A DNA stretch of 64,000 bases from Anaerolineae bacterium (lineage in GTDB: Bacteria > Chloroflexota > Anaerolineae > Anaerolineales > UBA6663): assembly GCA_037442085.1 (NCBI GenBank), contig JBBIQY010000004.1, positions 1,440-65,439 of the forward strand, read 5' to 3'. Position numbers and translations under genes: made by a program. Below the pieces are notes generated by a model, which did no database searches, had not been told where the DNA came from, and was given only the letters and a program-made list of their open reading frames with translations. Shown piece after piece: positions 9,877 through 51,401 of this stretch (its first letter is position 1; each line of letters begins with the position of its first letter).

Positions 9877-9899
9877 TTTCCAGATTTGAGATTCGAGAT
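9877..9899 (-). repeat. G-poor AATC-type short-period leader directly upstream of the oppC-like start
   Basis: Minus-strand sense aaatctcgaatctcaaatctggaaa followed by ATG. Confidence 0.7.
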
Positions 9900-10877
9900 T
9901 TATGCCGCTTTCACCCGCGGATCGAGATAGGCGTACAGCAAATCGGCCAGCAGGTTGGCGCCGATGACGGCCACGGCCAGCAGCAGAAACGCGCCTTGTA
10001 GCAGCGGGAAGTCCTGTTTATCCAGCGCCTCCTGAAACAGCTTGCCCAAGCCGTCGTAGGAGAAGACAGTCTCGATGTAGATCGCGCCGGCGACGGTGAA
10101 GCCCAGGTTGAGGGCCACCAGGGTCACAATCGGCAGCAGAGCGTTCTTGAAGGCATGATGGCGCAGCACTTGCCAGTGGCTCATCCCCTTGGCTTTGGCC
10201 GTCAGGATGTAATCTTCGCTCAGCACCTCCAGGACCGAGGAGCGCATGATGAGCATGTACTCGCCCAGGTAAACGATGGTGAAGGTGAGCGTGGGCAGGA
10301 TAAGATGGCGCGCGTAATCGGGCCAGACCTCCCAGATGGGCCGGCCCACGTTCTCCGGGCTGACGGTGCCGCCGGTGGGCAGGCCGAGCCAGGTGCTGCC
10401 CGCCGCCAGCAGGATGATGCCCAGCCAGAACGTGGGGATGGCCCAGGTAATCAGCGAGAACGTCAGCGAGCCGACGTCAATAGCCGTCTTGCGCTTCCAG
10501 CCGGCGAACAGCCCCAGCGCTACCCCCAACACAATCGAGAGCACCTGGCCGAGCGAAATGAGCAGCAGCGTGTTGCCCAGCTTGGAGAGCAACACGTCAG
10601 CCACCGGCCGTCGCAGCGACCAGGAAACGCCGAGGTTGCCCTGCGCCCATTGCGCCAGTGTGGCGAAGAACTGCTCGTGCAGCGGACGATCCAGCCCGAA
10701 CTGCGCCCGCAGCGCCTCCTGCGCCTCGCGTGAGAGGCGCACGTTGCGCCCGATGACGGCCCGCACCGGGTCGCCGGGCAACACGCGAAACAGGTAGAAA
10801 TCCACCACCACAACCACCGCCAGCGTCAACGCGGCCATCATGAACTTGCGCAGCACATAATCGCGGCGGTCCATCAT
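9900..10877 (-). CDS. ABC transporter permease (OppB/DppB-like)
   Basis: 325 aa. MMDRRDYVLRKFMMAALTLAVV..., typical OppB N-terminus and EAA-like region (LTAKAKGMSHWQVLRHHAFKNALLPIVT). Confidence 0.8.
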   Translation of the reverse strand: MMDRRDYVLRKFMMAALTLAVVVVVDFYLFRVLPGDPVRAVIGRNVRLSREAQEALRAQFGLDRPLHEQFFATLAQWAQGNLGVSWSLRRPVADVLLSKLGNTLLLISLGQVLSIVLGVALGLFAGWKRKTAIDVGSLTFSLITWAIPTFWLGIILLAAGSTWLGLPTGGTVSPENVGRPIWEVWPDYARHLILPTLTFTIVYLGEYMLIMRSSVLEVLSEDYILTAKAKGMSHWQVLRHHAFKNALLPIVTLVALNLGFTVAGAIYIETVFSYDGLGKLFQEALDKQDFPLLQGAFLLLAVAVIGANLLADLLYAYLDPRVKAA

Positions 10878-35229: not shown

Positions 35230-36276
35230 ATGCCATCACAATCAGAAACTCAAAATTCAAAATCCAAAATCATCCTCATCCCCGGCGACGGCGTTGGCCA
35301 GGAAGTCGTCCCCGCCGCCGCCGAGGTGCTGGCCGCGCTCGGCCTCGGGCTGAGGTTCGTCGAAGCGCCCGCCGGCTTCGAGCATTTTCAGAAAACGGGC
35401 AATGCCATCCCGGACGAGACGCTGGCGGACGTGGCCGCGGCGGGCGTGGCCCTGTTTGGGGCAACGGCCTCCCCGTCCACGATCGTCCCCGGCTACCGCA
35501 GCCCGATCCTCGCTCTGCGCCAGACGTTCGACTTGTACGCGAACCTGCGCCCCACCTTCTCCCTGCCCGGCCCCTTCTCCCGCGCCGGCGTTGATCTGCT
35601 CATCGTGCGCGAAAACACCGAGGATGTGTACGTGGGCCGCGAGCGACGCGAGGGTGAGACGGCAATCGCCGAGCGTGTGATCACCAAGCGCGGGTCAGAG
35701 CGGATTGCGCGGGCAGCGTATCAGACGGCGAGCCGCAGACGGCGGACAGCAGCGGGCGGCGGTCCGCCATCTACGGTCACAATCGTTCACAAAGCTAACG
35801 TCCTCAAGCTCACCGACGGCCTGTTCCGCGAGACCTGTCGTGCCGTCGCTGCCGAATACCCGGATGTTCAGACGAACGAAATGCTGGTGGACGCGATGGC
35901 GCTGCGGCTGATGCGCGACCCCGAGTCATTCGACGTGATCGTAACCACCAATCTGTTCGGCGACATCCTCTCCGATGAAGCCAGCGCCCTGATGGGCGGC
36001 CTGGGCTGCGCGCCGTCGGCCAACCTCGGGGAGACGGCGGCGGTGTTCGAGCCGGTGCACGGCGCCGCGCCCGATATCGCCGGGCGGGGCATTGCCAATC
36101 CCATCGGCGCAATCCTCGCGGCAGCCATGTTATTGGATCATATCGGCCAGACGGCTGCTGCCGGGCAGGTGCGCGCTGCCGTCATCGAGACGCTGCGCGC
36201 CGGCGTCTGGACGCGCGACCTCGGCGGAAACGCCGGCCTCAAGGAAATGACGCGCGCCGTCATCTCCAATCTCTAA
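35230..36276 (+). CDS. Homoisocitrate dehydrogenase candidate (isocitrate/isopropylmalate dehydrogenase family)
   Basis: ..KIILIPGDGVGQEV..., LRPTFSLPG, NLFGDILSDEASALMGGLG. Operon context. The first roughly 14 codons are encoded by the AATC-type repeat. Confidence 0.7.
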   Translation: MPSQSETQNSKSKIILIPGDGVGQEVVPAAAEVLAALGLGLRFVEAPAGFEHFQKTGNAIPDETLADVAAAGVALFGATASPSTIVPGYRSPILALRQTFDLYANLRPTFSLPGPFSRAGVDLLIVRENTEDVYVGRERREGETAIAERVITKRGSERIARAAYQTASRRRRTAAGGGPPSTVTIVHKANVLKLTDGLFRETCRAVAAEYPDVQTNEMLVDAMALRLMRDPESFDVIVTTNLFGDILSDEASALMGGLGCAPSANLGETAAVFEPVHGAAPDIAGRGIANPIGAILAAAMLLDHIGQTAAAGQVRAAVIETLRAGVWTRDLGGNAGLKEMTRAVISNL

Positions 36277-36283
36277 TCTTCAC

Positions 36284-37321
36284 ATGGACGAAATCCGACT
36301 CCTCGAAGACCTTTTGAACCTCTACAGCCCCACCGGCCAGGAGGCCGAGGCGGCGCACTACCTCGTGACGCAGATGCGCGCCGGCGGGCTGGAGGCGCAT
36401 GTGGATGAAATCGGCAATGCGGTCGGCATAGCCGGCGAGGGGTCGTTGACGATTATGCTGCTCGGACACATTGATACCGTGCCGGGCTTCATCCCGGTGA
36501 CACGCGACGGCGACCGGTTGAACGGGCGCGGCGCAGTGGATGCCAAGGGGCCGCTGGCTGCGTTTGCGGCGGCGGCGATTCGGGTCAAAGATCAACTCGC
36601 GGGCAAGCGCGTCATCGTTATCGGCGCAGTGGGCGAGGAGGGCGACAGCCGCGGAGCGCACTTCATCAAAGACCGATATCGCCCGGATTTCACGATCATC
36701 GGCGAACCGAGCGGCTGGGAGAAGGTGACTCTCGGTTACAAAGGCAGCGCCTGGTTCGAGTACAACGTGCAGCGGGCACTCGCCCACCCGGCGGCCAAGG
36801 CCGAGAGCGCCTGCGAGGCGGCGGTGGCGTTCTGGAATCGCGTGACGGCGTGGGCGGCGGAGCGCAACGGCGAAGCCCCGAAGATGTTCGATCAGGTCCT
36901 CCCCACCCTGCGCCAGATGAGTTCCGCCTCCGACGGGTTCATCGAGAGCGCGCGGCTGAAGTTCGGCGTGCGGCTGCCGCCGGGGTTGAGTCTCGGCGAA
37001 CTTCACGAGGCGCTGCAGGCGTTGGCCGAGACGGCCACGCTCACATTACACGAAGGTGTGCCGGCCTATCGCGGAGAAAAGAACACGCCGCTGGTGCGCG
37101 CCCTCCTCAACGCCATCCGGCAGGCCGGCGGCAATCCCTCTTTCTCGGTGAAAAGCGGCACCTCGGATATGAACGTGGTCGCGCCGGCCTGGGGTACGCC
37201 GATCGTCGCCTACGGCCCCGGCGACTCCGCGCTCGACCATACGCCTGACGAGCACATCCTTGTCCCGGAGTACCGACGAGCCGTTGCAGTAATTGTTCAA
37301 ACCTTGCTCAAGCTCGCTTAG
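36284..37321 (+). CDS. lysK: LysW-lysine hydrolase LysK (ArgE/M20 peptidase family)
   Basis: [47 protein letters not shown].. Terminal gene of the operon. Confidence 0.75.
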
Positions 37322-37611: not shown

Positions 37612-38706
37612 TTGAAGTCAGGTCCGCCGGTTCATAAGCGCAATACCCATCATGCTACTCTTGTGGGCCTGGTCATCGGGTTAGCAGCGCCAATCATCAT
37701 CTTTATTACTTTGGCAGGGCTGGTAACGATCCATATTCTCCGCCCGGCGGAAACGCCCGTGGCAGCTTCCCCCGACCTAACGCCAGGGATCGGACCGACC
37801 TCCAGCACGCCGTCAGGCACCCAGATGCTCGCTGCAGCAACGCTGCTCACATCCTCAACGCTGGCGCCCGGAACGACGCCAACGATGGCAGCGCCTGCGC
37901 CACTCCTCACGCCGGCCAACTCCGAAACAGCAGTTGCCGTCACAGCCACAAGCCGTTCTCAATTGCCGGAGGCAGCCACCGCGACGGCAACAGCGCCGCC
38001 AACCGCGACGCCGGTCGTCACGTTGACAGCGACCCCAACGCCCGATGCCCCGGCGAGCGCGACACCGACCTCGAGGCCGACGGACGGCCCAACCTCGACT
38101 CCGACGCCGACCCCGACCGCAACGGCCGCTGCCGCCTGGCGGTTCATCAATCTCACCTTCAGCATTGATCCGCTCGACACCCGGCACTCGCTGATCTACG
38201 GCGAAGTGGTCAATGCCACCGGCGTCGCGCAAGAGATCACAGACTTCACCGGGACGTTTTACAACGACCAGGGTCAACTCGTGGCTGGCACCGAGCAGTT
38301 ACGCCCGTATTGGCCGCTGGCCGTGTTGCCGCCCGGCAGCCAAATGCCGTTCGAGCTGCAGGTATTGAACGCCACCGGCCTGACACGCGCCGAGCTGGGC
38401 GTGCTGACCGCGCCGCGCGAAGAGGCGCCGCGCACGGACTTCACTTTCGAGAACGTCAACCAGTCCCTGAGCGGCGAGTTTTACTGCCTGCGCGGGCAAC
38501 TGCGCAACCCCGGTGGACGATTGAACGAGTACCTGGTCATCGTCGGCCTGCTCTACGACAGCCAGAACAATCTGGTGAAGTTCGCCGACGAGAGCGATGG
38601 GCCGCCGATCTTTGCTGTCGGGGAACGTCTCAAGAGCTTCGAGATGTGCATCGCCCCACCCTATCCCGGCGTGGTTCGCTATGAACTCAAGGCCTGGGGC
38701 CGCTAA
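37612..38706 (+). CDS. Membrane-anchored protein with Pro/Thr/Ala linker and two FxLYD-like beta-sandwich repeats
   Basis: TTG start after GAGG. One TM helix (LVGLVIGLAAPIIIFITLAGLV), a long PT-rich linker, then repeats containing TGTFYNDQGQLV and VGLLYDSQNNLV (FxLYD-like). Confidence 0.55.
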   Translation: MKSGPPVHKRNTHHATLVGLVIGLAAPIIIFITLAGLVTIHILRPAETPVAASPDLTPGIGPTSSTPSGTQMLAAATLLTSSTLAPGTTPTMAAPAPLLTPANSETAVAVTATSRSQLPEAATATATAPPTATPVVTLTATPTPDAPASATPTSRPTDGPTSTPTPTPTATAAAAWRFINLTFSIDPLDTRHSLIYGEVVNATGVAQEITDFTGTFYNDQGQLVAGTEQLRPYWPLAVLPPGSQMPFELQVLNATGLTRAELGVLTAPREEAPRTDFTFENVNQSLSGEFYCLRGQLRNPGGRLNEYLVIVGLLYDSQNNLVKFADESDGPPIFAVGERLKSFEMCIAPPYPGVVRYELKAWGR

Positions 38707-38802: not shown

Positions 38803-41800
38803 ATGAGGACAGTAACCATGAAGAAAACTCGTCTCGTTCTAAACGTACTTCTCATTCTAAGCCTGGCCTTGTCGTTTGGGCCGGCGGCTTTCGCCCAGAA
38901 CGGGCCCAATCCGCGCCCCCTGCCTGCAACCGTGGACGCCCTGAAGCTCGACGTCCCCGTCACTGCCGAGGGACGCAGAGGCGCCCTCAATCCGGAACTG
39001 GTAGGCGCATCCGGCCCACAACAGGTGGTCGTGCGCCTGAGCGGCGAGTCCGCGGCCCAGGCGGCGGCGGCCCGCGAAACGGCCCAGGCCCAGATCGCTG
39101 TGGCGGCTGCGGCAGCCGCGCAGCAGGATAGCTTCCTGAGCGTGGCCACCAGCCTGGACGCATCCGCTAAAGTGTTGGCCCGCCTCACCAAGGTTCTGAA
39201 TGCCGTGGTGCTGGAAGTGGACGGCGCGGCCCTGCCCGCCCTGGCGGCTCAACCCGGCGTGGTCTCCATCAATCCCGTGCGCAACTACGAACTGGACCTG
39301 AGCGAGACCGTGCCCTACATCGGCGCGACGCCGGCGGTTCAGGCGGCCGGCTTCCGCGGGAAAGACGTCAAGGTGGCCGTGCTCGATAGCGGCATTGACT
39401 ACACCCACGTCGCGTTTGGCGGCCCCGGGACAGCAGCGGCCTATACGGCGGCCTATGGCACTTCGACGGCAGATCCGCGCAACAAAACGCTGGATGGCCT
39501 CTTCCCCACCAGTCGTGTGGTGGGCGGCTACGACTTCGTCGGCGAGGTGTGGCCCAACGGCCCGTTGGCGCCCGACCCCGACCCGATTGACTGCGGCGCA
39601 GCAGGCCTCACGCCTCCAGCAACCTGCGCCGGCGGGCACGGAACTCACGTGGCCGACATCATCGGCGGCGCGCAGGGCGTCGCGCCCGAAGTTTCCCTGT
39701 ACGCCGTCAAGGTCTGCTCGGCAGTCTCAAGCTCGTGCAGCGGCGTGGCACTGCTGCAGGGCATGGAGTTCGCCGTGGACCCGAACGGCGACGGCGACCT
39801 GAGCGATCACGTTCACATCGTCAATATGTCCCTGGGCGCATCGTACGGCCAGGCCTACGATGACGACCTGTCGGCCGCGGTGGATGCGGCCACGCCGGTG
39901 GGCGTGCTCACCGTCGCTTCGGCGGGTAACAGTGCGGATCGGCCCTACATCACCGGCACCCCGTCGGCGACCTACACGGCGCTGGCCGTGGCGCAGACCA
40001 CGGTGCCCAGCGACGAGGTTTTCACGATCGTGGTCAACAATCCGCCCAGCGGCTTCGGCGATCCCGTCATCGGTATGATTGCCCAACCGTGGGCCGCCCC
40101 GCTGATCAGCGCCATCACGGCTCCCGTTTTCTACGATACAACCAGTCCTGCGACGCGCATCGGCTGCACCAACGCTGCTGGCGCGAGCCCGTGGGTCGGC
40201 ACCCCCCTCGCCGGTCGCATCGCTTTGATTGATCGCGGCACCTGCGCGGTCAGCATGAAAGTGAGCAATGCAGCGGCGGCGGGCGCGGTGGCGGCCATCG
40301 TCGCCAACAACGTCGCCGGCAATGTGCCGCCCATCTTCAGCTTCGGCGGCGGCACGCCCAGCATCCCCGGCTTCACGGTGACCCAGGCAGCCGGCCTCCG
40401 CTTGCGCACCATCTCCGGCAGCGCGACGGCGACCGGGACGATTGACCCGGCCTCCGCCATCAGCATCGTCGGCAGCATGGTCGCCAGCTCGTCGCGCGGC
40501 CCGAGCATGGGGCAGATGTTCTACGGCAACCAGATCATGTACGGCCAGCTCATCAAGCCCGAGATCGGCGCGCCCGGCGCCTCGATCTCGGCGGTGGCCG
40601 GCTCCGGCACGGGTGTGGAGCCGTTCGGCGGAACGTCCGGCGCGGCCCCCATGGTCTCCGGCGCGGCGGCCCTGCTGATGAACGCGACCAACTGGCAGCT
40701 CTCGCCGCCGGAACTGAAGAGCCGGCTGATGAACACCGCCGAGCGCAATATCCTCAACGGCGCGGCGATCTTCGGCAGCGGCGTACCGGCGCCGATCACC
40801 CGCATCGGCGGCGGCGAGGTGCGTGTGGATCGCGCTGTCGCGGCCAACGCAGCCGCCTGGGAGTTCAACAACCGGGGCGCGGCGCTGTCCTTCGGCTTCG
40901 TGGACGCCTCTCAAGCCACAACGACCCTGCGCCGCACGGTAGTGGTGCGCAACTACGGCGATCACCCGATCACGTACGACATCACGCCGACCTTCCGCTA
41001 CGCCAACGACGTGACAAACGGTGCGGTCAACGTCAGCGCGCCGGCCTCCATCCGGGTGCCCGCGCGCAGCCAGCGCTCCTTCCGCATCACGCTGACGATT
41101 GACGGCGCGAAACTGCGCGCCTGGACGCTGAACTCCGGCTCGCAGGGCGGCAACGGCGATCTGTTGACCGTCTTCGAATACGACGGCTACCTGCTGTTGA
41201 CCGATGCCGGCAACGCCGCCAACAACCTGAGCCTGCCGTGGCACGTACTGCCGCGCATCTCCAACGACGTGCGCGGCCCCAACTCGGTGCGCCTGGACCA
41301 CACGGGCACCGGCTCGATCAACCTGCGCAACCAGGGCGTCGCTCCGGCCACGGTCGAGGTCTTCTCGCTCATCGGCACCGGCCCGGACATCGCCGCCGGC
41401 GGCAGAGGCGAGCAGAATCCGCCCATCCCACTGCGCGCTGTGGGTGTCCGGACGTTCGACGGCACCGGCCTCTGCCCGGCGAACACGCCGATCTTCCAGT
41501 TCGCCTTGAACACTCACTCGCGGCAGACGCATGCCAACTACCCGGCGGAATTCGACATCATCTTCGACACCAACCGAGACGGCGTCGATGACTACGCCGG
41601 GTTTACGTCGGAGAGAGGTGCCTTTGCCTCGAGCGGCCAGAACGCCTTCTTCGTCGGGCCGCTGCCGGCCGGGCCCTTTACGGCGTTCTTCTTCACCGAC
41701 CACATCCTCAACAGCGGCAACACGGTGGTGACGATCTGCGGCTCGCAGATCGGCCTGACCGGCCCCACCGACACCCGACTGATTGATATTGATGTGTACG

Positions 41801-42042
41801 CGTTCGACAATTACTTCACCGGCAACCTCAAGTCGTCGGTGGAGGATATGACGATCGCGGCCTTCGGTGAGCGCTACTTCGGGGTCGTGAATCCCATCGC
41901 CCCGGGTGCGACGGAGCCGTTGCAGGTGCTGGCCAATCCGGCCGGCGTCAACACCACGGAGACCGGCCTGCTGTTGCTCTTCACGGGCAGCGGCGCCGGT
42001 GCTCCCCCGAACAACGAGGCGCGCCTGCTGACCGTGCGCTAA
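38803..42042 (+). CDS. Secreted subtilisin-family (S8) serine peptidase with I9-like propeptide and PA-domain insert
   Basis: Signal peptide. Catalytic triad contexts VAVLDSGID (Asp), GHGTHVADIIGG (His), GGTSGAAPMVSGAAALL (Ser). PA-like GRIALIDRGTCAVSMKVSNAAAAGA. The start may be 38818. Confidence 0.85.
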   Translation: MRTVTMKKTRLVLNVLLILSLALSFGPAAFAQNGPNPRPLPATVDALKLDVPVTAEGRRGALNPELVGASGPQQVVVRLSGESAAQAAAARETAQAQIAVAAAAAAQQDSFLSVATSLDASAKVLARLTKVLNAVVLEVDGAALPALAAQPGVVSINPVRNYELDLSETVPYIGATPAVQAAGFRGKDVKVAVLDSGIDYTHVAFGGPGTAAAYTAAYGTSTADPRNKTLDGLFPTSRVVGGYDFVGEVWPNGPLAPDPDPIDCGAAGLTPPATCAGGHGTHVADIIGGAQGVAPEVSLYAVKVCSAVSSSCSGVALLQGMEFAVDPNGDGDLSDHVHIVNMSLGASYGQAYDDDLSAAVDAATPVGVLTVASAGNSADRPYITGTPSATYTALAVAQTTVPSDEVFTIVVNNPPSGFGDPVIGMIAQPWAAPLISAITAPVFYDTTSPATRIGCTNAAGASPWVGTPLAGRIALIDRGTCAVSMKVSNAAAAGAVAAIVANNVAGNVPPIFSFGGGTPSIPGFTVTQAAGLRLRTISGSATATGTIDPASAISIVGSMVASSSRGPSMGQMFYGNQIMYGQLIKPEIGAPGASISAVAGSGTGVEPFGGTSGAAPMVSGAAALLMNATNWQLSPPELKSRLMNTAERNILNGAAIFGSGVPAPITRIGGGEVRVDRAVAANAAAWEFNNRGAALSFGFVDASQATTTLRRTVVVRNYGDHPITYDITPTFRYANDVTNGAVNVSAPASIRVPARSQRSFRITLTIDGAKLRAWTLNSGSQGGNGDLLTVFEYDGYLLLTDAGNAANNLSLPWHVLPRISNDVRGPNSVRLDHTGTGSINLRNQGVAPATVEVFSLIGTGPDIAAGGRGEQNPPIPLRAVGVRTFDGTGLCPANTPIFQFALNTHSRQTHANYPAEFDIIFDTNRDGVDDYAGFTSERGAFASSGQNAFFVGPLPAGPFTAFFFTDHILNSGNTVVTICGSQIGLTGPTDTRLIDIDVYAFDNYFTGNLKSSVEDMTIAAFGERYFGVVNPIAPGATEPLQVLANPAGVNTTETGLLLLFTGSGAGAPPNNEARLLTVR

Positions 42043-42264: not shown

Positions 42265-43230
42265 ATGAGACCCTCGCCGCTTTTCCACGGTTTGCCGCGC
42301 GCCGCCCGGCTCAGCCTGACACTCGCCGTCGTGTTGACGTTGGGGCCAGGGGCTGCGCACGTACATAGCCAGGCGGCGCCGCCGGCTTCCTTCCCGGTTG
42401 TCATCTCAGGTGGCGGCGCAACCTGGACTTTCGACAACTCGCTCGGCATCAACCTGTTTTTCAATTGGCTGGAGCCGGGCCGGCCCGGCTTCGGCCTGGA
42501 AACCGCTCTGCTGGCCGGGAACTCCAACACTGCGCTCAACACGTCGTACACGCTCTGGCTGGATGACCGGCAGTTTGTCGCGCCCACTGCCGTCACCGCG
42601 ACAGCAACCAGCCTGACCATCGGCCCGGTTATCACCGCGGGCCTTTCGGTCCAACTCCAATTCCAGGCGCTGAGCGACCGTCCGGCGCTGCGCGCTCTGG
42701 TCAATCTGCAGAACCCCGGCGCAACCAGCGTCACACGCTCGATCCGGATCACCAACAACGTCGCCTCGAATAACCGGACGATCATCCCGGACGGCGGCAC
42801 CAGCAGCGGCGATAGCCTACTCACCACCCAGGATCGCTGGGCCATCACCAGCGAAGACACCCAGCCACTGCACAACCCCGTCAACTTGCACGTCTTTGCC
42901 GGCCCGAGCAGTCCGCCGGCTCTGCCCACCAGCGTCGCCACGCGAGTCTATCTCGATCCGACGAACGAGCTTGACCCCGGCTCAACCGGGCTGAACGGCG
43001 TCAGCCTCACCTTCAACCTGACCATCCCGGCCGGGGAGACGCGCCGGTTGCTGCTCTTTCATCAACTGGCGACCAGCAACGAAACTGCTCTGAGTGAAGC
43101 TGCGCGCTTCAGCACGTTCTGGCGCAAATCGGAGACGCTGCTCAGCGGCCTGTCTCCGGTGGAGATGTCTGAGGTCGTCAACTGGGCCCTGCCAGCATAC
43201 GAAGTGTTCCTGCCTCTGATCCAGCGGTGA
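42265..43230 (+). CDS. Secreted hypothetical protein (beta-rich, no family recognised)
   Basis: 321 aa, signal-like N-terminus (LSLTLAVVLTLGPGAAHVHSQA), high GC3. Lies between the two subtilase paralogs. Confidence 0.55.
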   Translation: MRPSPLFHGLPRAARLSLTLAVVLTLGPGAAHVHSQAAPPASFPVVISGGGATWTFDNSLGINLFFNWLEPGRPGFGLETALLAGNSNTALNTSYTLWLDDRQFVAPTAVTATATSLTIGPVITAGLSVQLQFQALSDRPALRALVNLQNPGATSVTRSIRITNNVASNNRTIIPDGGTSSGDSLLTTQDRWAITSEDTQPLHNPVNLHVFAGPSSPPALPTSVATRVYLDPTNELDPGSTGLNGVSLTFNLTIPAGETRRLLLFHQLATSNETALSEAARFSTFWRKSETLLSGLSPVEMSEVVNWALPAYEVFLPLIQR

Positions 43231-43463: not shown

Positions 43464-43493
43464 AAACCGGCCATGCGCGAGGCCGGTTTTTTT
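43464..43493 (+). terminator. Intrinsic terminator AAACCGGCC-atgcgcga-GGCCGGTTT followed by a T-run, inside the 5' leader of the S8 paralog
   Basis: 9-bp stem, 8-nt loop, run of 7 T. Lies about 145 nt after the promoter and 49 nt before the ATG at 43542. Confidence 0.65.
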
Positions 43494-43541: not shown

Positions 43542-46500
43542 ATGAAATTCACCCCCTCGCATTTTCGAATCCCGCTCTCTCTATGGCTATTCGTCACGCT
43601 CGTCTTGCAGTCACTCAACCCGGCATCAGCGCAGATCCCGTCCCATCCGCCCCAGTGGATCGAAGACCTCAAACTGGAACAGCCCGTTACCCTGAAGCAG
43701 AGCTTGGCCTCGGCTGCCTCCGTCCTGCCGGATTGGATCAAGGCCGCCCGCCTGGACAAGCCGCTCACGGCCAGCTCAGCCCCCGCCGCAGCGGATAGCG
43801 CTCAGCAGGCCGTCCGCGAATGGCGACCGATCCTGGTTCAACTCGCACAACCCTCGTTGGCTGACCTGGTCGCGGTTCAGGCCGACCGCAGCCTCCAGCT
43901 GGCGCAAGCTGCGCGCATTCAGGATGTCCAGGGCCGCCTGGTCGAGACCCTCCGCACCATAGACCCGACAGCCCGCGTGCTGACTCACCTGAGCCGGAGC
44001 CTCAATGCTATCGCGCTGGAGACCAACACGGCCGGCCTTGATTGGCTGGCTCGACAACCGGATGTCATCGGCCTTTTCCCGATCACCGATTACCGACTAG
44101 AGAAGAGCCGGGCGCTTGCCAAAGGCGGCCTGGCGCGTTCGAGTCACCCGCTGGCGGGCGACGCAGGCAGCGGCGTCAGGATCGCCATCCTGGACTCGGG
44201 GATAGATTTCACACACGCCAAGCTCGGCGGGCCTGGCACTGCCACCGCGTATGCCGTCGCTTATTGCGGCCGGCCCGAGGCGCGGCCCGATCCTACCGAC
44301 CCGAGCTGCGCCGCCCACACCCAAGCGCCGCAATTTAATACCAAGGTCGTCGGCGGCTATGACTTTGTCGGCGAGAACTGGCCGTTCGGCCCGCTGGCGC
44401 CCGATCCCAATCCTATTGACTTTTTCGGCCATGGCACCCAGGTGGCCGACATCGCCGCCGGCCTGCCGCTGCGCAGCGCTGACCGGGCGCGGCTGCGCCT
44501 GGCCCACCTCGCGCCCGGCGCACCGAACGTGGACGTGCTCCTGTCCGGCGAACGCCTGCTGGCCAACGTCGCCTTCCGCACGACCACGGACTATGCCGTG
44601 CTCCAGCCCGGCAACTATCGTCTTCTTCTCACCCCCGCCGGGCAGACGCAGCCGGTTCTAGCTGAAATTGCCCTGGTCGTCGAGGCGGGTCAGGACTACA
44701 CCGTGGTAGCGCTGGAAGTTTCCAAAGCGCTCTCCTTGTGGCCGCTCACCGATGACAGCAGCGCCCCGGCGGCCGAAAATACCCACGTGCGCTTCGTCAA
44801 TGCCGCGCCCGGGGCCGGGGCGATAGATATCGCCCTCGCCAACGGCGGGCCGGTTCTGGTCTCCAACCTTGCCTTCGCCCAGGCCAGCGATTACGTGACC
44901 CTGCCTGCAGGCCAATACACGTTCGAGGTGCTGGATACAGACACATCGGCCCGTCTCTATACATCGGCGGCGCTGACGTTGAACGGCGGGCGCATCTACA
45001 CAAGCTACGCGGCGGGCCGGCTTGCCGGCGCAGGGGCACAGCCGTTTGGCCTGGAGTGGAGCGTGGACGATTCCGGTGCGACGGCCGGCATGGCGCCGGG
45101 GGCCTCCCTCTATGCGGTCAAGGTCTGCTCGGCAGTGGCCGGCTCGTGCAGCGGCATCGCGCTGCTGCAGGGCCTGGAATATGCTCTCGACCCGAACCGC
45201 GACGGCGACCTGAGTGACCGGGTGGACATTATCAATCTATCGTTGGGCAGGCCATACGGGCTGGCCTACGATGAAGCGCTTTCCATGGCCATCCTGGGTG
45301 CCGGCAAGGCCGGCGTCCTGACGGTCGGCGCCGCCGGCGACAACGGCGATAAGCCCTATAACATCAATACGCCGGGCGCCTCCTACAGCGCCCTGTCTGT
45401 GGCGGCGACTTCGATCACCGGGACCGTGCTCAGCGCCTCCTCGCGCGGACCCAACGGCGGGCAAATGTTTTACAACAACGAGATCATGTATGCCCAGCTC
45501 ATCAAGCCGGAGATCGCCGCCCCCGGAACGGCCGAGGCGGCGCGGGCCGGTTCCGGCGCGGGCACGCAGGCGCTCAGCGGCACGGCGGCGGCGGCGGCAC
45601 ACGTAAGCGGGGCGGCGGCGGTGCTCATCCACGCCACCGACCGGCAACTCTGGCAGACGGCGATCAAGTCCCGGTTGATGAACACGGCCGATCCGCGCGT
45701 GTTCGCGGAAGACGGACAGCTTGCGCCGATCCCGCGCATCGGCAGCGGCGCGTTGCGGTTGGAACGCGCGCTGACGGCTCGGGCCGTGGCCTGGGAGGAA
45801 CACAACCGGGGCGGCGCTCTGTCCTTTGGACTCGTGGATGTCGCCACGCCGCGGGTCACGCTGAGCCGCCGAATCTTCATCCGAAACCTGAGCGATCAGC
45901 CCATTCGCTACCACATCTCTCCGGCGTTCCGGTACGAGGCCGACGCTTTGAGCGGCGTGGTCGCCCTGCAAGTCGCCGAATGGCTGGATGTGCCCCCGGG
46001 CGCCACCTACCCCCTGGAGATCACGCTGCACATTGACGGCTCACGTCTGAACGGCTGGCTATTGAATTCCGGCGAAAACGGCGCCAGCGGCGAAACGCTG
46101 ACGGCCCTGGAATTCGACGGCTACCTGAATCTGGTGGACGCGGCCGACCCGCGCAACACCCTGAGCCTGCCCTGGCATGTGCTGCCGCGCCGGGCTGCCG
46201 ACGCCATACCTGAGACGACCACGGTCCGCCTGGAGAACGGGCGCGGTGAGATGGAGATGTTCAATCACGGCATCGGCCCGGCCAACGTGGATGCTTACTC
46301 ACTGGTGGCCGTCAGCGACAACCAGGCCGCCAGCTTTGCCGGGCAGGACCAGACGGTCATTGACCTGAAAGCGGTGGGCGTCCGCACCTTCTCGGTCACG
46401 GCAGGCTTCTGTTCGCCGGATTCGTCATTTCTGCTGGCCTTCGCCATCAGCACCTTCTACCGGCAAAGCCATGCCAACGCGCCCGGCCGATTCGAGATCA

Positions 46501-47018
46501 ACCTCGACCTCAACCGTGACGGCAGCTTTGACTACCAGATGTTCAACGCCGATCTGGCCTGGCCGAACGTGAGCGATGGCCGCAACGTCGTCTGGGTGCG
46601 CAATCTGATGACCGGCGTTGCGACTGCGCGCTTCTATGTCGAGCACGCCCTGGAGAGCAGCAACTTCGGCCTGGTGGCCTGCGCCGAACAATTCGACCTG
46701 ACGCCGGCCAACTATGGTCAACCGATTAGCGTGCGCATAGATGCGCGGGACTGGGCCAACTCTGGCCGGATCACGGACACGGCGGATGGGATCGTGATCG
46801 TACCCGGCGGCGACCGCTTCCTGGCGGAGGGCGGCGACGTTGGGCCTGCCAGATCGACGCGCTGGACGATCATAGATCAAGGCCCGCTAAGAACTAACCC
46901 GACCGAGTTCGGCCTGTTGTTCTTTACGGATGCGCCGCGATTGGAGAATGGCCGCCCGGCCCGGTCGGGCGCAGCCGACCCGGCGCGCGAGGCCTGGGTG
47001 ATCCACATCGTTCCCTGA
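43542..47018 (+). CDS. S8 subtilase paralog, predicted catalytically inactive (Ser to Ala), with a tandem DUF4397-like insert and no PA domain
   Basis: Signal peptide. Asp (IAILDSGID) and His (GHGTQVADIAAG) contexts retained. At the position aligned to GGTSGAAPMVSGAAA of the paralog it reads LSGTAAAAAHVSGAAA. About 210 aa inserted after the His, with two repeats of the DUF4397 pattern (..RLAHLAPGAPNVDVLL.. and ..VRFVNAAPGAGAIDIAL..). Confidence 0.75.
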   Translation: MKFTPSHFRIPLSLWLFVTLVLQSLNPASAQIPSHPPQWIEDLKLEQPVTLKQSLASAASVLPDWIKAARLDKPLTASSAPAAADSAQQAVREWRPILVQLAQPSLADLVAVQADRSLQLAQAARIQDVQGRLVETLRTIDPTARVLTHLSRSLNAIALETNTAGLDWLARQPDVIGLFPITDYRLEKSRALAKGGLARSSHPLAGDAGSGVRIAILDSGIDFTHAKLGGPGTATAYAVAYCGRPEARPDPTDPSCAAHTQAPQFNTKVVGGYDFVGENWPFGPLAPDPNPIDFFGHGTQVADIAAGLPLRSADRARLRLAHLAPGAPNVDVLLSGERLLANVAFRTTTDYAVLQPGNYRLLLTPAGQTQPVLAEIALVVEAGQDYTVVALEVSKALSLWPLTDDSSAPAAENTHVRFVNAAPGAGAIDIALANGGPVLVSNLAFAQASDYVTLPAGQYTFEVLDTDTSARLYTSAALTLNGGRIYTSYAAGRLAGAGAQPFGLEWSVDDSGATAGMAPGASLYAVKVCSAVAGSCSGIALLQGLEYALDPNRDGDLSDRVDIINLSLGRPYGLAYDEALSMAILGAGKAGVLTVGAAGDNGDKPYNINTPGASYSALSVAATSITGTVLSASSRGPNGGQMFYNNEIMYAQLIKPEIAAPGTAEAARAGSGAGTQALSGTAAAAAHVSGAAAVLIHATDRQLWQTAIKSRLMNTADPRVFAEDGQLAPIPRIGSGALRLERALTARAVAWEEHNRGGALSFGLVDVATPRVTLSRRIFIRNLSDQPIRYHISPAFRYEADALSGVVALQVAEWLDVPPGATYPLEITLHIDGSRLNGWLLNSGENGASGETLTALEFDGYLNLVDAADPRNTLSLPWHVLPRRAADAIPETTTVRLENGRGEMEMFNHGIGPANVDAYSLVAVSDNQAASFAGQDQTVIDLKAVGVRTFSVTAGFCSPDSSFLLAFAISTFYRQSHANAPGRFEINLDLNRDGSFDYQMFNADLAWPNVSDGRNVVWVRNLMTGVATARFYVEHALESSNFGLVACAEQFDLTPANYGQPISVRIDARDWANSGRITDTADGIVIVPGGDRFLAEGGDVGPARSTRWTIIDQGPLRTNPTEFGLLFFTDAPRLENGRPARSGAADPAREAWVIHIVP

Positions 47019-47023
47019 GTGAG

Positions 47024-47548
47024 TCAGGGCCGTGCCGGCTGGCACAGCACGAAGCTGCCGCTTTCGGTCACCCGGTAGTCATACTCAGCCTCGCCGGCCC
47101 GGATGATCACCCAGTAACCGGGCACGACGGCCTGGGTGTATTCCATACCTCGTTGCGGGCAACCAAGCGACCCATCGCTCCAGATAACGGCTTCGGCGCG
47201 AAGGTAGGTAAAGGCCGCGCGCGTAACGCCGCTGCGCTGTTCCAGATCTGCTTCGATAATTTCCTGCAAAGTTGGCGGCAATTCACCGACCACGGGCGCC
47301 GTCGTTGGCGGCACAGTGGCCAGCTCCGGCGGACGGCGCGTCACCGGCAGCGCCGGAAGAGGAAGCGTCTCCGTCGTGGGGAGCACCGTCGCAGTCGGTT
47401 GGGGTCGAGCGCCGGGAGTTGTCGTCGCAGGTGCGAGTGGATCTGTCGTAGGTTCAGGCTGAGCCGGCAGCGCGGTGGGTTCGGGGAGCGTCAGCGGTGC
47501 ACAGGCCGCCAGCAACACGGCCAGCAATAACACAACAGCAAGTTTCAT
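47024..47548 (-). CDS. Lipoprotein of unknown function
   Basis: MKLAVVLLLAVLLAAC lipobox, Pro/Thr linker, about 90-aa C-terminal domain with two Cys (..WSDGSLGCPQRG...FVLCQ). Convergent with the S8 paralog, 5 nt away. Confidence 0.6.
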   Translation of the reverse strand: MKLAVVLLLAVLLAACAPLTLPEPTALPAQPEPTTDPLAPATTTPGARPQPTATVLPTTETLPLPALPVTRRPPELATVPPTTAPVVGELPPTLQEIIEADLEQRSGVTRAAFTYLRAEAVIWSDGSLGCPQRGMEYTQAVVPGYWVIIRAGEAEYDYRVTESGSFVLCQPARP

Positions 47549-47626: not shown

Positions 47627-48451
47627 TCAGAGCTGCAGCCGATGGCGCGGATAGGAGCCAAGCACCCGCAGCATCAGCGCATACTCCGCCAGATGCTCCA
47701 ACGCACGCTTGACCGGCGCTTCCGCCACCGAGCCGACGAAATCCACGTAAAACAGGTATTCCCAGACCTTGCCTACCAACGGGCGCGATTCGATCTTGGT
47801 CAAATCCAGATCGCGTAGCGCAAACACGCTCAACGCCTTGAACAATGAGCCGGGCTCGTTCTTCAACGTAAACACGATGGAGGTCTTGGCTTCACCTTCC
47901 GGCGCCGTCGGCTGCGACGCGATGGCCAGGAAGCGCGTGTAGTTTGCCGGATCATCCTCGATGCCCTCGGCCAGGACCATCATGCCATAGACCTCGGCGG
48001 CGCGGCGCGAGGCGATGGCGGCCATTTGCCCGTCGCCGACCGCCTTCACCATCTTGACGCTCCCGGCCGTGTCATAGGCCACCTCCGTCCGGACGTTGGG
48101 TAGCGAGCGCAGGTAACGCTCGCACTGCGCCAGCGCCTGTGGATGGCTGATGACTTTGCGAACCCCGGCCAGCGTCGCGCCGGGCAGGCCGATCAGGCAG
48201 TGGCGCACCCTGAGATGATGCTCACCAACGATGTGCAGCGAGTGCTGGAGCAGCAGATCGTAGTTGCGGTGGATGCTGCCGGCGACGGAATTTTCGATTG
48301 GCGCGAGGCCGCGTTCGCACGCGCCGGACTCGACAGCGGCAAACAGGGCTTCGAAGGACTCGTGCGGCACGGTCTCGACGTTTGCGCCGAAGTGCTCCAG
48401 CGCTGCCGCTTCGGAATAGGCGCCGGGCTCTCCCTGAAACGCAACGCGCAT
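47627..48451 (-). CDS. pheA: Prephenate dehydratase
   Basis: MRVAFQGEPGAYSEAAA..., IENSVAGSI, C-terminal ACT domain (TSIVFTLKNEPGSLFKAL...ESRP). Start trimmed to the conserved N-terminus. Confidence 0.85.
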   Translation of the reverse strand: MRVAFQGEPGAYSEAAALEHFGANVETVPHESFEALFAAVESGACERGLAPIENSVAGSIHRNYDLLLQHSLHIVGEHHLRVRHCLIGLPGATLAGVRKVISHPQALAQCERYLRSLPNVRTEVAYDTAGSVKMVKAVGDGQMAAIASRRAAEVYGMMVLAEGIEDDPANYTRFLAIASQPTAPEGEAKTSIVFTLKNEPGSLFKALSVFALRDLDLTKIESRPLVGKVWEYLFYVDFVGSVAEAPVKRALEHLAEYALMLRVLGSYPRHRLQL

Positions 48452-48633
48452 CGGTTCTTTATCCTCTACTGCCCACGGTCGGGAATTGCGCTTTTCAGCC
48501 ACGAAGGGGCATGGATCATTCGTGTCCGGCGAAGGCAATGCCTTCGCCAGACCCCGGGTTTGGAGATAGCCTCTCAGAAAACCGCAGTCTGTGTCCGCGC
48601 AGCGTATCCTTCGCGCAATTCGCTGCCACTACC

Positions 48634-49692
48634 TCAGGCCAGTCGCGCGATGATTTCGTCGGTCATCTGGCGCGTGTTCAGCTTCCCGCCCAGGTCGGCG
48701 GTACGGCAGCCGTCCGTGATCGCACGCTCCACGGCCGCTTCGATGAGCGCCGCCTCCGCCTCGAGCTTGAGCGAGTAACGCAGCAATAGCGCCGCAGACA
48801 GGATCGCGCCGACCGGGTTGGCGATGCCTTTGCCGGCGATATCGGGCGCGGAGCCGTGGATCGGTTCGTACAGGCCCGGCCCGCCCTCGCCCAGCGAGGC
48901 CGAGGGCAACATGCCCATCGAGCCGGCCAGCACCGAGGCCTCGTCGGTAAGGATGTCGCCGAACATGTTCTCGGTCACCAGCACGTCGAAGCCGGCCGGG
49001 CTGGTGACCAGCCGCATCGCAGCGGTGTCCACAAGCATGTTCTCGAAAGCCACGTCCGGGTGCTCCGCCGCGACCTGTGCGGCGATCTGCCGCCACAAGC
49101 GCGAGGTCTCGAGGATGTTGGCCTTATCCACCGAGGTCACCTTCCGACGCCGGCTCTGCGCCAGCTTGAACGCCAGCCGCAGGACGCGCTCGATCTCGAA
49201 GTCATGATACTCCAGCACGTCAACGACGCGCGTATGGCCGTTCACCTGCTCGCGCCGCTTCTCGCCGAAGTACAGGCCGCCGGTGAGTTCGCGGATTACC
49301 AGCACATCCACGCCTCTCAGCCGCTCGGGCTTGAGCGGCGAGGCGTCCAGCAAAGCCGGATGCGTCTTGGCCGGGCGCAGGTTGGCAAAGACCCCGAGGC
49401 CTTTTCGCAAGCCGAGGATGCCCTGCTCGGGTCGAACGCTGGCGGCCGGGTCGTCCCACTTCGGCCCGCCCACCGCGCCCAGCAGCACGGCGTCCGCCGC
49501 CCGGCAATCGGCCAGCGTCTCGTCGGTCAGCGCCGTCCCGTAGCGGTCAATCGAGCTGCCGCCGATCGGGCGCTCGGTGAAATGGAAACTGTGTCCGCAG
49601 CGCGTGGCCACGGTTTCAAGAACGCGCACGGCTTCCGCCACCACGTCGGGGCCGATGCCGTCGCCGGGGAGAAGGATGACCTTTGCTTTCAC
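48634..49692 (-). CDS. leuB: 3-isopropylmalate dehydrogenase
   Basis: (V)KAKVILLPGDGIGPDVV..., NLRPAK, NMFGDILTDEASVLAGSMGMLPSASL. GTG start chosen by N-terminal conservation; the track ORF begins at a TTG at 49740. Confidence 0.85.
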   Translation of the reverse strand: MKAKVILLPGDGIGPDVVAEAVRVLETVATRCGHSFHFTERPIGGSSIDRYGTALTDETLADCRAADAVLLGAVGGPKWDDPAASVRPEQGILGLRKGLGVFANLRPAKTHPALLDASPLKPERLRGVDVLVIRELTGGLYFGEKRREQVNGHTRVVDVLEYHDFEIERVLRLAFKLAQSRRRKVTSVDKANILETSRLWRQIAAQVAAEHPDVAFENMLVDTAAMRLVTSPAGFDVLVTENMFGDILTDEASVLAGSMGMLPSASLGEGGPGLYEPIHGSAPDIAGKGIANPVGAILSAALLLRYSLKLEAEAALIEAAVERAITDGCRTADLGGKLNTRQMTDEIIARLA

Positions 49693-49763
49693 GGCTTTCT
49701 CAGTCTGATGCGAAGGAGGGATGAAGAGACGATCGGTCAACGAATTGTCATCCTGTCATCCTT

Positions 49764-51326
49764 TCACGGGCCGGCCATCGTCAACCCGTACTCCATCGCA
49801 TCCGCCAGCGCGCGCCAGCTGGCTTCGATGATGTTGGCGCTGGCGCCGACCGTCGTCCAGCGCTTTGTCCCGTTCTGCGTATCAATCAGCACGCGCGTGG
49901 TTGCGCCGGTGCCGTTGTTGCCGTCGAGGATGCGGACCTTGTAATCGGCCAGCTGGAATTTATCCAGCACCGGATAGTGCGGCGTCAATGCTTTGCGCAG
50001 CGCCTTGTCGAGCGCGTTGACCGGGCCGTTGCCCTCGGCGGCGGTATGCAGCACTTCCGGCGAGCCGGGCACGCGCACCTTCACCGTCGCCTCGGCAAAG
50101 ATGCCGCGCCCGCGCCGGTGCTCGACGTTCACCGAGAAGTCAATCAGCTCGAACGGGGCGGTGTACGTCGGCTCCTGCCGCTTCATCATCATCGCTACCG
50201 AGGCCTCGGCGGCCTCGAAAGCGAAGCCCTGTGCTTCGAGCTGCTTGATCTCCGTAAGCACGCCGGCCACTTCGTCGCCGTGCTCGAACTCCAGGCCATA
50301 CTCCTCGGCCTTGCTGAGCAGGTTGCCGCGCCCGGACAGCTCGCTGACGACGACGCGCATCCGATTGCCGACCTGCTCCGGATCAACATGCTGATATGAT
50401 TTTGCAGTGCGCCGCATGGCGGCCACGTGGATGCCGCCCTTGTGCGCGAAAGCGCTCTTGCCGACATAGGCCAGGTGCTCGTCGGGCGCCAGATTGGCGA
50501 CCTCGGCGACGAAGTGTGAGACCTCATATAAGCGCGCCAGGCGGCCCTCCGGCAGACAGCGCACGTCCAGTTTCAATTCCAGGTTGGCGATGATGGAGCA
50601 CAGGTTGGCGTTGCCGCACCGCTCGCCGTAGCCGTTGATGGTGCCTTGCACCTGGATCGCGCCTTCGCGCACCGCCGCCAGCGTATTCGCCACCGCGCAC
50701 TCGCTGTCGTTGTGCGTGTGAATGCCGAACGGATGCGATATTTGTTCGCGTATACGCGAACAAATATCGCCGATCTCCCACGGCATCGAGCCGCCGTTCG
50801 TATCGCACAACACCACGGTCTCTGCGCCGCCGCGCAGCGCCGCGTGCAGCGTCTCGAGGGCATACGCCGGGTCGGCCTTGTAACCGTCGAAGAAGTGTTC
50901 GGCATCGTAGATGACGCGGCGGCCGTGCGCGCGCAGATAGGCCAGGCTCTGCTCGATGATCCGCAGGTTGTCCGCCAGCGTCGTGCGCAACACCTCCGTC
51001 ACGTGCAACGTCCACGTCTTGCCGACGACGGTGCAGACCGGCGTCCGGGCGTCGAGCAGGGCTTTGAGGTTGGCGTCATCGTCCACCCCCCCGCCCACGC
51101 GACAGGTCGAGCCAAAGGCGGCGATCAGCGCGTGTTTCCAGTCGAGGTCGCGTGCCCGCTCAAAGAACTCAGCGTCTTTGGGATTGCTGCCGGGCCAGCC
51201 GCCCTCGATGAAATGCACGCCCAACTCATCCAGCTTTTGTGCAATGCGCACCTTATCCGCGCAAGAGAGCGAGAGACCTTCACGCTGAGTGCCGTCACGG
51301 AGGGTGGTGTCGTAAATTTGCATCAT
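49764..51326 (-). CDS. cimA: (R)-citramalate synthase (CimA-type LeuA-family enzyme)
   Basis: MMQIYDTTLRDGTQREGLSLSCADKVRIAQKLDELGVHFIEGGWPGSNPKDAEFF is the CimA-type N-terminus, with a C-terminal LeuA-dimer-like domain. Confidence 0.75.
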   Translation of the reverse strand: MMQIYDTTLRDGTQREGLSLSCADKVRIAQKLDELGVHFIEGGWPGSNPKDAEFFERARDLDWKHALIAAFGSTCRVGGGVDDDANLKALLDARTPVCTVVGKTWTLHVTEVLRTTLADNLRIIEQSLAYLRAHGRRVIYDAEHFFDGYKADPAYALETLHAALRGGAETVVLCDTNGGSMPWEIGDICSRIREQISHPFGIHTHNDSECAVANTLAAVREGAIQVQGTINGYGERCGNANLCSIIANLELKLDVRCLPEGRLARLYEVSHFVAEVANLAPDEHLAYVGKSAFAHKGGIHVAAMRRTAKSYQHVDPEQVGNRMRVVVSELSGRGNLLSKAEEYGLEFEHGDEVAGVLTEIKQLEAQGFAFEAAEASVAMMMKRQEPTYTAPFELIDFSVNVEHRRGRGIFAEATVKVRVPGSPEVLHTAAEGNGPVNALDKALRKALTPHYPVLDKFQLADYKVRILDGNNGTGATTRVLIDTQNGTKRWTTVGASANIIEASWRALADAMEYGLTMAGP

Positions 51327-51360
51327 TTTGGATTTCTGAGTTCGGATTGTGGAGTGCTGA
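51327..51360 (-). repeat. AATC-type leader abutting the cimA start
   Basis: Minus-strand sense tcagcactccacaatccgaactcagaaatccaaa followed by ATGATG. An inverted partial copy lies at 51385-51400. Confidence 0.7.
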
Positions 51361-51401
51361 TCTACCCTCGAACTCAATCAGCCACCAGAAATCCACAATC
51401 T

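Follow-up and report, generated by a model that had tools for sequence, protein, structure and literature searches.

We describe here a pair of secreted subtilase-family (S8) genes in a 64,000-nucleotide stretch of DNA from an Anaerolineae bacterium (the window), the second of which, at 43542–47018 on the forward strand, encodes a subtilase in which the nucleophile serine is replaced – hereafter the pseudo-subtilase. A first reading of the letters alone (the sequence-only reading) had called the two proteins paralogs that align over long stretches. BLASTP bears this out, aligning them in three colinear blocks at 38–60% identity: the propeptide and Asp/His region (38%), a stretch that follows an insert in the pseudo-subtilase (60%), and the Ser region together with the C-terminal 514 amino acids (aa; 42%). 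The two genes contain the following features.

38803–42042, forward strand: predicted-active S8 protease with a PA domain (the active paralog); DSGID, GHGTH, SAGN and GGTSGAAP motifs intact
43542–47018, forward strand: pseudo-subtilase gene, encoding a signal peptide, a propeptide, a split and degenerate S8 domain, two DUF4397 repeats, no PA domain and a C-terminal beta-sandwich region
43542–43634, forward strand: predicted Sec signal peptide (aa 1–31, ending in NPASA before Q), read from the sequence; N-terminus conserved in orthologs
43719–44099, forward strand: propeptide-like domain (aa ~60–186), beta-alpha-beta-beta-alpha-beta in the AlphaFold2 model; aligns with the propeptide of the active paralog
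44157–44462, forward strand: N-terminal part of the S8 domain, with Asp218 (44193–44195) and His297 (44430–44432; GHGTQ)
44463–45092, forward strand: 210-aa tandem DUF4397 module (aa 308–517), matched by Pfam PF14344 in two stretches and all-beta in the AlphaFold2 model
45093–45776, forward strand: C-terminal part of the S8 domain, from alignments and substitution rates
45339–45341, forward strand: Asp600, replacing the oxyanion Asn
~45417, forward strand: point at which the PA domain is excised
45585–45587, forward strand: Ala682, replacing the nucleophile Ser
45597–45599, forward strand: Ala686, replacing a Pro
45777–47015, forward strand: C-terminal beta-sandwich region of ~410 aa, common to the active paralog and all-beta in the AlphaFold2 model

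The pseudo-subtilase open reading frame (ORF) is uninterrupted and encodes 1158 aa. Its longest frame opens at 43473, and we took the ATG at 43542 as the preferred start because it yields a signal-peptide-like N-terminus (MKFTPSHFRIPLSLWLFVTLVLQSLNPASA followed by Q, judged by eye from the sequence without predictor software) and because orthologs start at the same position. The frame of the active paralog is also open throughout, with a likely start at 38818 (MKKTRL). Pfam assigns this protein an S8 domain and a PA domain (57.7 bits), with a weak fn3_5 match in its C-terminal region.

Two differences in domain architecture that the sequence-only reading had described are confirmed. Peptidase_S8 (PF00082) matches the pseudo-subtilase well above its cutoff (117.3 versus 21.8 bits) in two stretches split by an insert after the catalytic His. 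This insert, exactly 210 aa long and lying between ...DIAAG and GMAP, matches DUF4397 (PF14344) in two stretches covering aa 316–~505 (136 bits against a cutoff of 30.6, E = 1.2e-39), in agreement with the ~210-aa tandem DUF4397 insert proposed earlier. It occupies the loop equivalent to residues 75–84 of subtilisin BPN', the loop of calcium site A. A Pfam search of the pseudo-subtilase found no match to the PA domain (PF02225), and the segment is cleanly absent, with ~150 aa of the paralog standing opposite an alignment gap; the excision point follows the strand equivalent to about residue 180 of BPN'.

An AlphaFold2 model of the pseudo-subtilase, built from a 99-sequence family alignment, has a mean predicted local distance difference test score (pLDDT) of 85.8 and a predicted template-modelling score of 0.84. 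It comprises a propeptide-like unit, a subtilase core, two all-beta DUF4397 units and a long all-beta C-terminal region; the linker after the propeptide (aa ~187–205) is variable and modelled with low confidence. Foldseek ranks Vpr, Tk-SP, SpyCEP, the C5a peptidases ScpA and ScpB, cucumisin and classical subtilisins highest among PDB structures, with a probability of 1.00 to Vpr, Tk-SP, ScpA and the BPN' and lentus subtilisins – the model thus has the subtilisin alpha/beta fold.

Within this predicted fold, the catalytic machinery has been dismantled at several positions. The DNA at 45576–45611 reads AGC GGC ACG GCG GCG GCG GCG GCA CAC GTA AGC GGG, which in frame gives SGTAAAAAHVSG, while the other two frames make no sense. 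The paralog motif GGTSGAAP thus corresponds to SGTAAAAA in the pseudo-subtilase: the nucleophile Ser has become Ala682, and the Pro four residues further on is now Ala686. Both losses had been called by the sequence-only reading, and the family alignment concurs. That reading had also listed the Asn region among the conserved stretches. The region does align, but the oxyanion Asn itself (N155 of BPN') is replaced: SAGNSAD in the paralog corresponds to AAGDNGD, with Asp600 at the Asn position. The full correspondence to BPN' (whose D32, H64, N155 and S221 fall where expected) is D32 to D218, H64 to H297, H67 to Q300, N155 to D600, S221 to A682, M222 to A683 and P225 to A686. The protein therefore has neither the complete Asp-His-Ser triad nor the oxyanion Asn of an active peptidase.

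The same substitutions recur in relatives of the pseudo-subtilase. Six ortholog clusters (P0002–P0007), 70–79% identical and combining S8 and DUF4397 domains without a PA domain, emerged from a search of 5.8 billion proteins, and a seventh relative, 92% identical, lies on contig L013. Ser-motif occupancy was taken both from a strict pattern and from the family alignment, which holds 7 members of this clade and 92 other relatives. At the Ser position, 5 of the 7 clade members have Ala and 2 have Asp, whereas all 92 others have Ser. At the oxyanion position, Asp (5/7) or Glu (2/7) replaces the Asn found in 92/92 others, and at the +4 position Ala (7/7) replaces Pro (92/92). These same 7 sequences account for every Ser, Asn and Pro loss in the alignment, a coincidence that argues against chance. 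The copy on L013, the eighth clade member, reads GAAAAAAH and has additionally changed Thr681 to Ala. The catalytic His is Gln in P0002 and P0007 and is retained in 6 of the 8 members, while Asp218 is invariant. The former active site is consequently acidic, with D218, D or E at 600, and D682 in two orthologs.

Outside the active site the family signature is largely preserved. Of the 100 positions at which at least 85% of the active relatives agree, all 7 clade members keep 91; at six the clade majority differs, N600, S682 and P686 among them. Cleft-forming segments, including the SLG (BPN' 125–127) and the 100–104 strand, are retained. Since 91 of 100 family positions are kept and the exceptions include the three catalytic ones, the loss appears to have been targeted to the catalytic machinery, with the determinants of the fold retained. 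The junction between propeptide and mature enzyme has changed as well: where active relatives have SETVPYIGA, the clade has a variable stretch, with a 23-aa insertion in P0006.

We then weighed whether the pseudo-subtilase gene is functional at all. That it is decaying, or that the Ser-to-Ala change is a sequencing or assembly error, would be suggested by the position of the change within a (GCG)4 run in GC-rich DNA. The orthologs, whose conservation of the Ala the sequence-only reading had put forward as a check, come from independent samples assembled by JGI, Logan and NCBI; 6 independent loci keep the 3.5-kb ORF unbroken, and none of the ~8 protein clusters – from different samples and assemblers – has a Ser at this position. 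Three separate catalytic positions have changed together. The ratio of nonsynonymous to synonymous substitution rates (dN/dS; estimated by the Nei–Gojobori method from codon-aligned orthologs, five at first and six later) is 0.18–0.25 for the whole gene at synonymous divergences (dS) of 0.16–1.2, close to the 0.15–0.19 of the active paralog in the same genomes. The gene is under purifying selection and is not decaying. Clade-wide residue loss and purifying selection together exclude error and decay for practical purposes, and we assign them a negligible probability.

Constraint is unevenly distributed along the gene. The dN/dS is lowest in the N-terminal catalytic half (0.07–0.14) and next lowest in the C-terminal catalytic half (0.11–0.13), followed by the C-terminal domains (0.14–0.21) and the DUF4397 module (0.20–0.30); the signal peptide and propeptide are least constrained (0.28–0.49). 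The dead catalytic domain is thus the most constrained part of the gene.

We examined where else the DUF4397 module occurs. The sequence-only reading had treated it as specific to the dead paralog and as part of its retooling, a view that does not survive comparison with active relatives, because many predicted-active S8 proteins with a PA domain have this module at the identical position. The clusters P0008 and P0009 carry it there together with a PA domain and intact GHGTH, SAGN and GGTSGAAP motifs. With the L006 gene that precedes the pseudo-subtilase gene as query, another search added at least 25 further S8+PA+DUF4397 clusters of 1220–1310 aa from Chloroflexota (among them P0115 and P0118–P0133), whose source names include Caldilinea (P0125, 'Caldilinea sp.'), Roseiflexus (P0132, 'Roseiflexus sp.') and Oscillochloridaceae. 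The distance from the His to an APxxLYAVK motif is 204–214 aa in these proteins, and their catalytic motifs are intact. The module thus predates the loss of catalysis, since predicted-active S8+PA proteins carry it at this site and with this length, including positional orthologs of the active paralog on L006 and L013.

The history of the module in the active paralog itself seems complex. The gene at the active paralog's position carries the module on L006, and so does its counterpart on L013 (6036–9875) – the closest relative found, 90–94% identical to the window gene on both flanks of the insertion site – where a 210-aa tandem DUF4397 module directly follows ...ADIIGG. The active paralogs of the window (near 39667–39681), L001 and L005 have instead a common insert-free junction, IIGGAQGVAP. 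Just upstream of the insertion site, the nucleotide identity of the window falls to 73% with L013 but stays at 86% with L005. The module is thus an apparent presence/absence polymorphism in the active paralog of close relatives, and because of the local drop in identity beside the insertion site we read its history as a recombinational mosaic, for which loss and regain are both possible directions. Two simpler accounts were rejected. Gene conversion of the L013 module from the adjacent pseudo-subtilase gene is at odds with its identity to pseudo-subtilase modules (44%) as against active ones (67–76%). A simple deletion in the window's active paralog is at odds with IIGGAQGVAP matching the canonical short loop of insert-free relatives, and with the upstream drop in identity.

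Relationships among these proteins are partly resolved. In a neighbour-joining tree the pseudo-subtilase clade is monophyletic with 100% bootstrap support, while its order relative to P0008, the L006 upstream gene and the active paralogs is poorly supported (53–66%). By identity the clade lies nearest to module-bearing forms, at 51% to the L006 upstream protein and 48% to P0008, compared with 46% to the active paralog of the window; the module of the pseudo-subtilase is 42–47% identical to modules of active relatives, and the clade's module overall ~42% identical to the active type. Conservation within the two groups is distributed in opposite ways. In 17 active S8+PA+DUF4397 proteins the module is the most conserved part (mean identity 74%), above the catalytic halves (65–70%) and the C-terminal region (48%); in the 8 members of the pseudo-subtilase clade it is among the least conserved (73%), below the catalytic halves (85–89%) and the C-terminal region (80%). 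Given this difference in rank, the module appears to matter most for the active enzymes, with its constraint changed in the dead copy. Our literature search found no paper on the function of DUF4397 or on DUF4397-bearing subtilases, and a PDB sequence search with the module returned nothing significant.

The genes around the two paralogs form a conserved arrangement. Active S8 gene, a gene for a 321-aa secreted protein, pseudo-subtilase gene and a convergent gene for a lipoprotein-like protein of ~170 aa follow one another in this order in the window and on L001, L005, L006 and L013, that is, in 5 of 6 loci, with L002 as the exception. In the window the additional features are as follows.

42265–43230, forward strand: 321-aa secreted protein, encoded between the two S8 genes; synteny kept in 5 of 6 loci
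43467–43493, forward strand: GC-rich hairpin followed by a T-run, terminator-like, ~50 nt upstream of the pseudo-subtilase start
47024–47548, reverse strand: 174-aa lipoprotein-like gene, convergent, 5 bp from the pseudo-subtilase stop; syntenic in all six loci including L002

L002, from an Anaerolineales metagenome-assembled genome (MAG; GCA_033577755.1), retains the pseudo-subtilase gene but not the active paralog. At 9018–10001 on this contig, between an M20 peptidase gene and the pseudo-subtilase gene, the DUF3426-like gene and the active S8 gene are missing, and of the 321-aa gene only a C-terminal remnant is left, at 9568–9726. The dN/dS of pairs that involve the L002 pseudo-subtilase gene is unchanged (~0.18).

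The hairpin (CCGGCC/GGCCGG, which can be lengthened to 9 bp) precedes a run of 7 T, and the element overlaps position 43473. L013, L001 and L005 have conserved it, L002 has a degraded version and L006 has none. A consensus scan did not report it; termination of the upstream gene and attenuation are possible roles.

The 321-aa protein has no match in Pfam, NCBIfam or the PDB, and its AlphaFold2 model is poor (pLDDT 48.9) and was not used as the basis of a fold search. A profile search returned 1493 representative clusters, 179 of them at E ≤ 1e-30, in which its ~270-aa domain occurs alone, in tandem or as part of giant proteins, frequently on the N-terminal side of PKD, RTX, FG-GAP, SdrD-B or cadherin-like modules. 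The domain would seem to represent an extracellular family that is so far unclassified. A C-terminal motif, EVFLPL[IV][QR]R (43204–43227 in the window), ends the protein in 8 of 9 homologs listed, with P0111 and P0114 named as exceptions, and P0017 ends in a similar FFLPLVIKLYLPVIFR; these endings may represent a lineage-specific sorting or anchoring signal. P0111, from a 1.5-kb contig, is a full-length copy of the 321-aa type with the same altered C-terminus as the L002 remnant. The 174-aa protein has a LLAAC lipobox-like signal, a Pro/Thr-rich linker and a Cys-containing C-terminal domain of ~80 aa, and likewise has no match in Pfam, NCBIfam or the PDB.

Upstream of the active paralog, a forward-strand gene at 37612–38706 encodes a membrane-anchored, Pro/Thr/Ala-rich protein with weak, sub-threshold DUF3426 and FxLYD-like matches; its counterpart on L013 is 364 aa long, and shorter genes (232 and 193 aa) occupy the position on L001 and L005. 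The whole protease island is flanked in all relatives by the same amino-acid biosynthesis-like genes: lysine-like genes (aconitase, Iso_dh, M20) at ~35230–37321 and leucine/phenylalanine-like genes (PDT/ACT, Iso_dh, HMGL-like/LeuA) at 47627–51377, with homocitrate-synthase-like genes upstream of the island on L002 and L013. These flanks give no functional clue to the island.

We consider it likely that the pseudo-subtilase is an exported, folded and catalytically dead subtilase, derived from a duplicated S8+PA+DUF4397 protease and acting non-catalytically. The evidence thus supports the earlier proposal of a secreted S8 paralog unable to use the classical Ser mechanism. In the most economical reading of its origin, the ancestor would have been an active Chloroflexota protease of the pyrolysin/Vpr-like S8+PA+DUF4397 type, with the module after the His helix; this gene would have been duplicated, and one duplicate would then have shed its PA domain and given up the nucleophile Ser, the oxyanion Asn and the +4 Pro. 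The PA domains of subtilases have been implicated in the binding of substrates (PMC5177683), and loss of the PA domain fits a non-catalytic role for that reason.

How such a protein might act can be sketched from the pattern of constraint. Catalytic mutants are not autoprocessed (PMC7200643), and with Ser and Asn absent the propeptide would stay uncleaved unless trimmed in trans; the protein would thus probably be exported as an uncleaved or trans-trimmed pro-form. A retained propeptide is consistent with the loss of SETVPYIGA, the insertion in P0006 and the low-confidence linker. The pseudo-subtilase would probably bind rather than cut, most likely through its conserved subtilase domain – favoured because constraint is strongest there and the cleft-forming segments are retained – with the DUF4397 and C-terminal beta-sandwich domains probably serving as spacers or attachment modules. 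As a speculation, the acidic former active site may define the bound ligand.

Several points weigh against this account. The inactivity of the pseudo-subtilase is inferred from its sequence, and it is the alignment, not a three-dimensional view, that places both the occupant of the nucleophile site and the DUF4397 module with respect to the cleft. The clade is narrow, comprising ~8 sequence clusters, and a scan of GTDB representative genomes recovered no member, returning only active-type relatives with at most 38% identity. The dN/dS values are Nei–Gojobori estimates from a genome of 65% GC, with some pairs near dS saturation. The absence of the active paralog from L002 is seen on one MAG contig, which is weak evidence, and the rest of that genome could still harbour another paralog.

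One rival reading keeps the protein a hydrolase that works by a non-canonical mechanism, through another nucleophile or through water activated by acid and His with the Asp/Glu at position 600. In its favour, Asp218 is invariant, His297 persists in 6 of 8 members, the catalytic domain is the most constrained region and the oxyanion position is always acidic, which recalls the sedolisins (family S53), whose oxyanion hole contains an Asp. Sedolisins still need a Ser, however, and the alignment reveals no other conserved Ser or alternative nucleophile in the pseudo-subtilase clade – another Ser placed as the nucleophile being what the sequence-only reading had said would refute a pseudo-protease. 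The residues of the former active site are exactly those that vary (Ala/Asp at 682, Thr/Ala at 681, His/Gln at 297), as expected under relaxed constraint there, and restored triads in the Csp pseudoproteases discussed below gave no activity. We regard a surviving hydrolase as very improbable. A partnership modelled on Csp, in which the pseudo-subtilase regulates, receives signals for or chaperones the active protease encoded beside it, perhaps jointly with the 321-aa protein, deserves more weight, although we still think it unlikely. The pseudo-subtilase would here control activation or substrate access of the active enzyme, as CspC and CspA control CspB. The gene order is kept in the window, L013, L001, L005 and L006 across dS up to ~1, and the Csp precedent involves the same His-to-Gln and Ser-to-Ala substitutions; but tandem order is expected from duplication alone, L002 keeps the pseudo-subtilase gene under similar constraint without its neighbour, a terminator-like hairpin lies between the units, and the protein falls far below the Csp family threshold (17.6 versus 1250 bits). 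Because L002 dispenses with the paralog and the hairpin separates the two units, we think it more likely that the pseudo-subtilase has no strict need of its active neighbour than that the two form an obligate partnership of the Csp kind.

A more specific version of the binding role is that the active site has been rebuilt as an acidic pocket, an extracellular receptor or 'substrate trap' for a cationic peptide or a metal. The pocket would comprise the invariant Asp218, the always-acidic position 600 and, in two orthologs, Asp682, and the protein would be a secreted counterpart of the CspC and CspA sensors. A separate idea is that the tandem DUF4397 module is a cassette exchanged into and out of the active paralog by recombination between close relatives; if true, this swapping would mark it as the specificity element of a whole, unstudied class of Chloroflexota proteases. 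We hold both ideas doubtful.

Our preferred reading, a catalytically dead subtilase that acts by binding, bears on how subtilases are interpreted more generally. Pseudoenzymes are common, and it is the pair of paralogs together with the conserved, recombining DUF4397 cassette that offers tractable leads: natural active and dead paralogs lie side by side, with a clear evolutionary path from an active S8+PA+DUF4397 protease. The broader lead is a widespread, unstudied Chloroflexota architecture in which a DUF4397 insert in the catalytic domain is the most conserved part. In practical terms, the label 'S8 family serine peptidase' on genes of the pseudo-subtilase clade (e.g., P0006) overstates their capability.

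Subtilase pseudoproteases are known in detail almost only from the Csp proteins of spore germination, and the clade described here provides an independent, extracellular example. CspA (His to Gln, Ser to Ala) and CspC of Clostridioides difficile are functional subtilase pseudoproteases that do not autoprocess, and restoring the triad in Csp pseudoproteases did not restore activity (PMC7200643). Both are transducers of germinant signals and are encoded with the active CspB (PMC7200643, PMC6636752, PMC12880746). The pseudo-subtilase resembles CspA and CspC in having an S8 fold with substituted catalytic residues, in lying beside an active paralog and in being retained by selection, and its clade includes both of the CspA substitutions. 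It is not a member of that family: the NCBIfam CspBA model (NF040809) scores 17.6 bits against a cutoff of 1250, placing it in a different S8 subgroup. The Csp proteins are intracellular spore proteins of ~550 aa without a DUF4397 module, a large C-terminal beta-sandwich or a signal peptide; the pseudo-subtilase, unlike them, has also replaced its oxyanion Asn, and its Chloroflexota (Anaerolineales-like) host has no link to germination.

In overall architecture the pseudo-subtilase is closer to extracellular subtilases. Like Vpr (8jmw), ScpA (3eif), SpyCEP, cucumisin and Tk-SP, it has a propeptide, an S8 core and C-terminal Fn3-like beta-sandwich domains. Enzymes of the pyrolysin/Vpr/C5a-peptidase type are active and carry a PA domain between Asn and Ser, as do the adjacent paralog and the 92 other relatives in our alignment; the pseudo-subtilase shares the C-terminal beta-sandwich homology (42% over 514 aa with its paralog) but has no PA insert, Ser, Asn or +4 Pro, and differs further in the 210-aa tandem DUF4397 module in the loop after the His helix. 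Its acidic oxyanion residue recalls sedolisins, although it lacks their Ser and its His is not replaced by Glu. The closest sequence relatives are the S8+PA+DUF4397 proteases of Chloroflexota (P0008, P0115, P0125 and P0132), which have a module of 204–214 aa at the same insertion site but, unlike the pseudo-subtilase, keep the triad, the Asn and the PA domain. These comparisons identify the protein as a predicted extracellular, multidomain subtilase pseudoprotease from an uncharacterised S8+PA+DUF4397 lineage.

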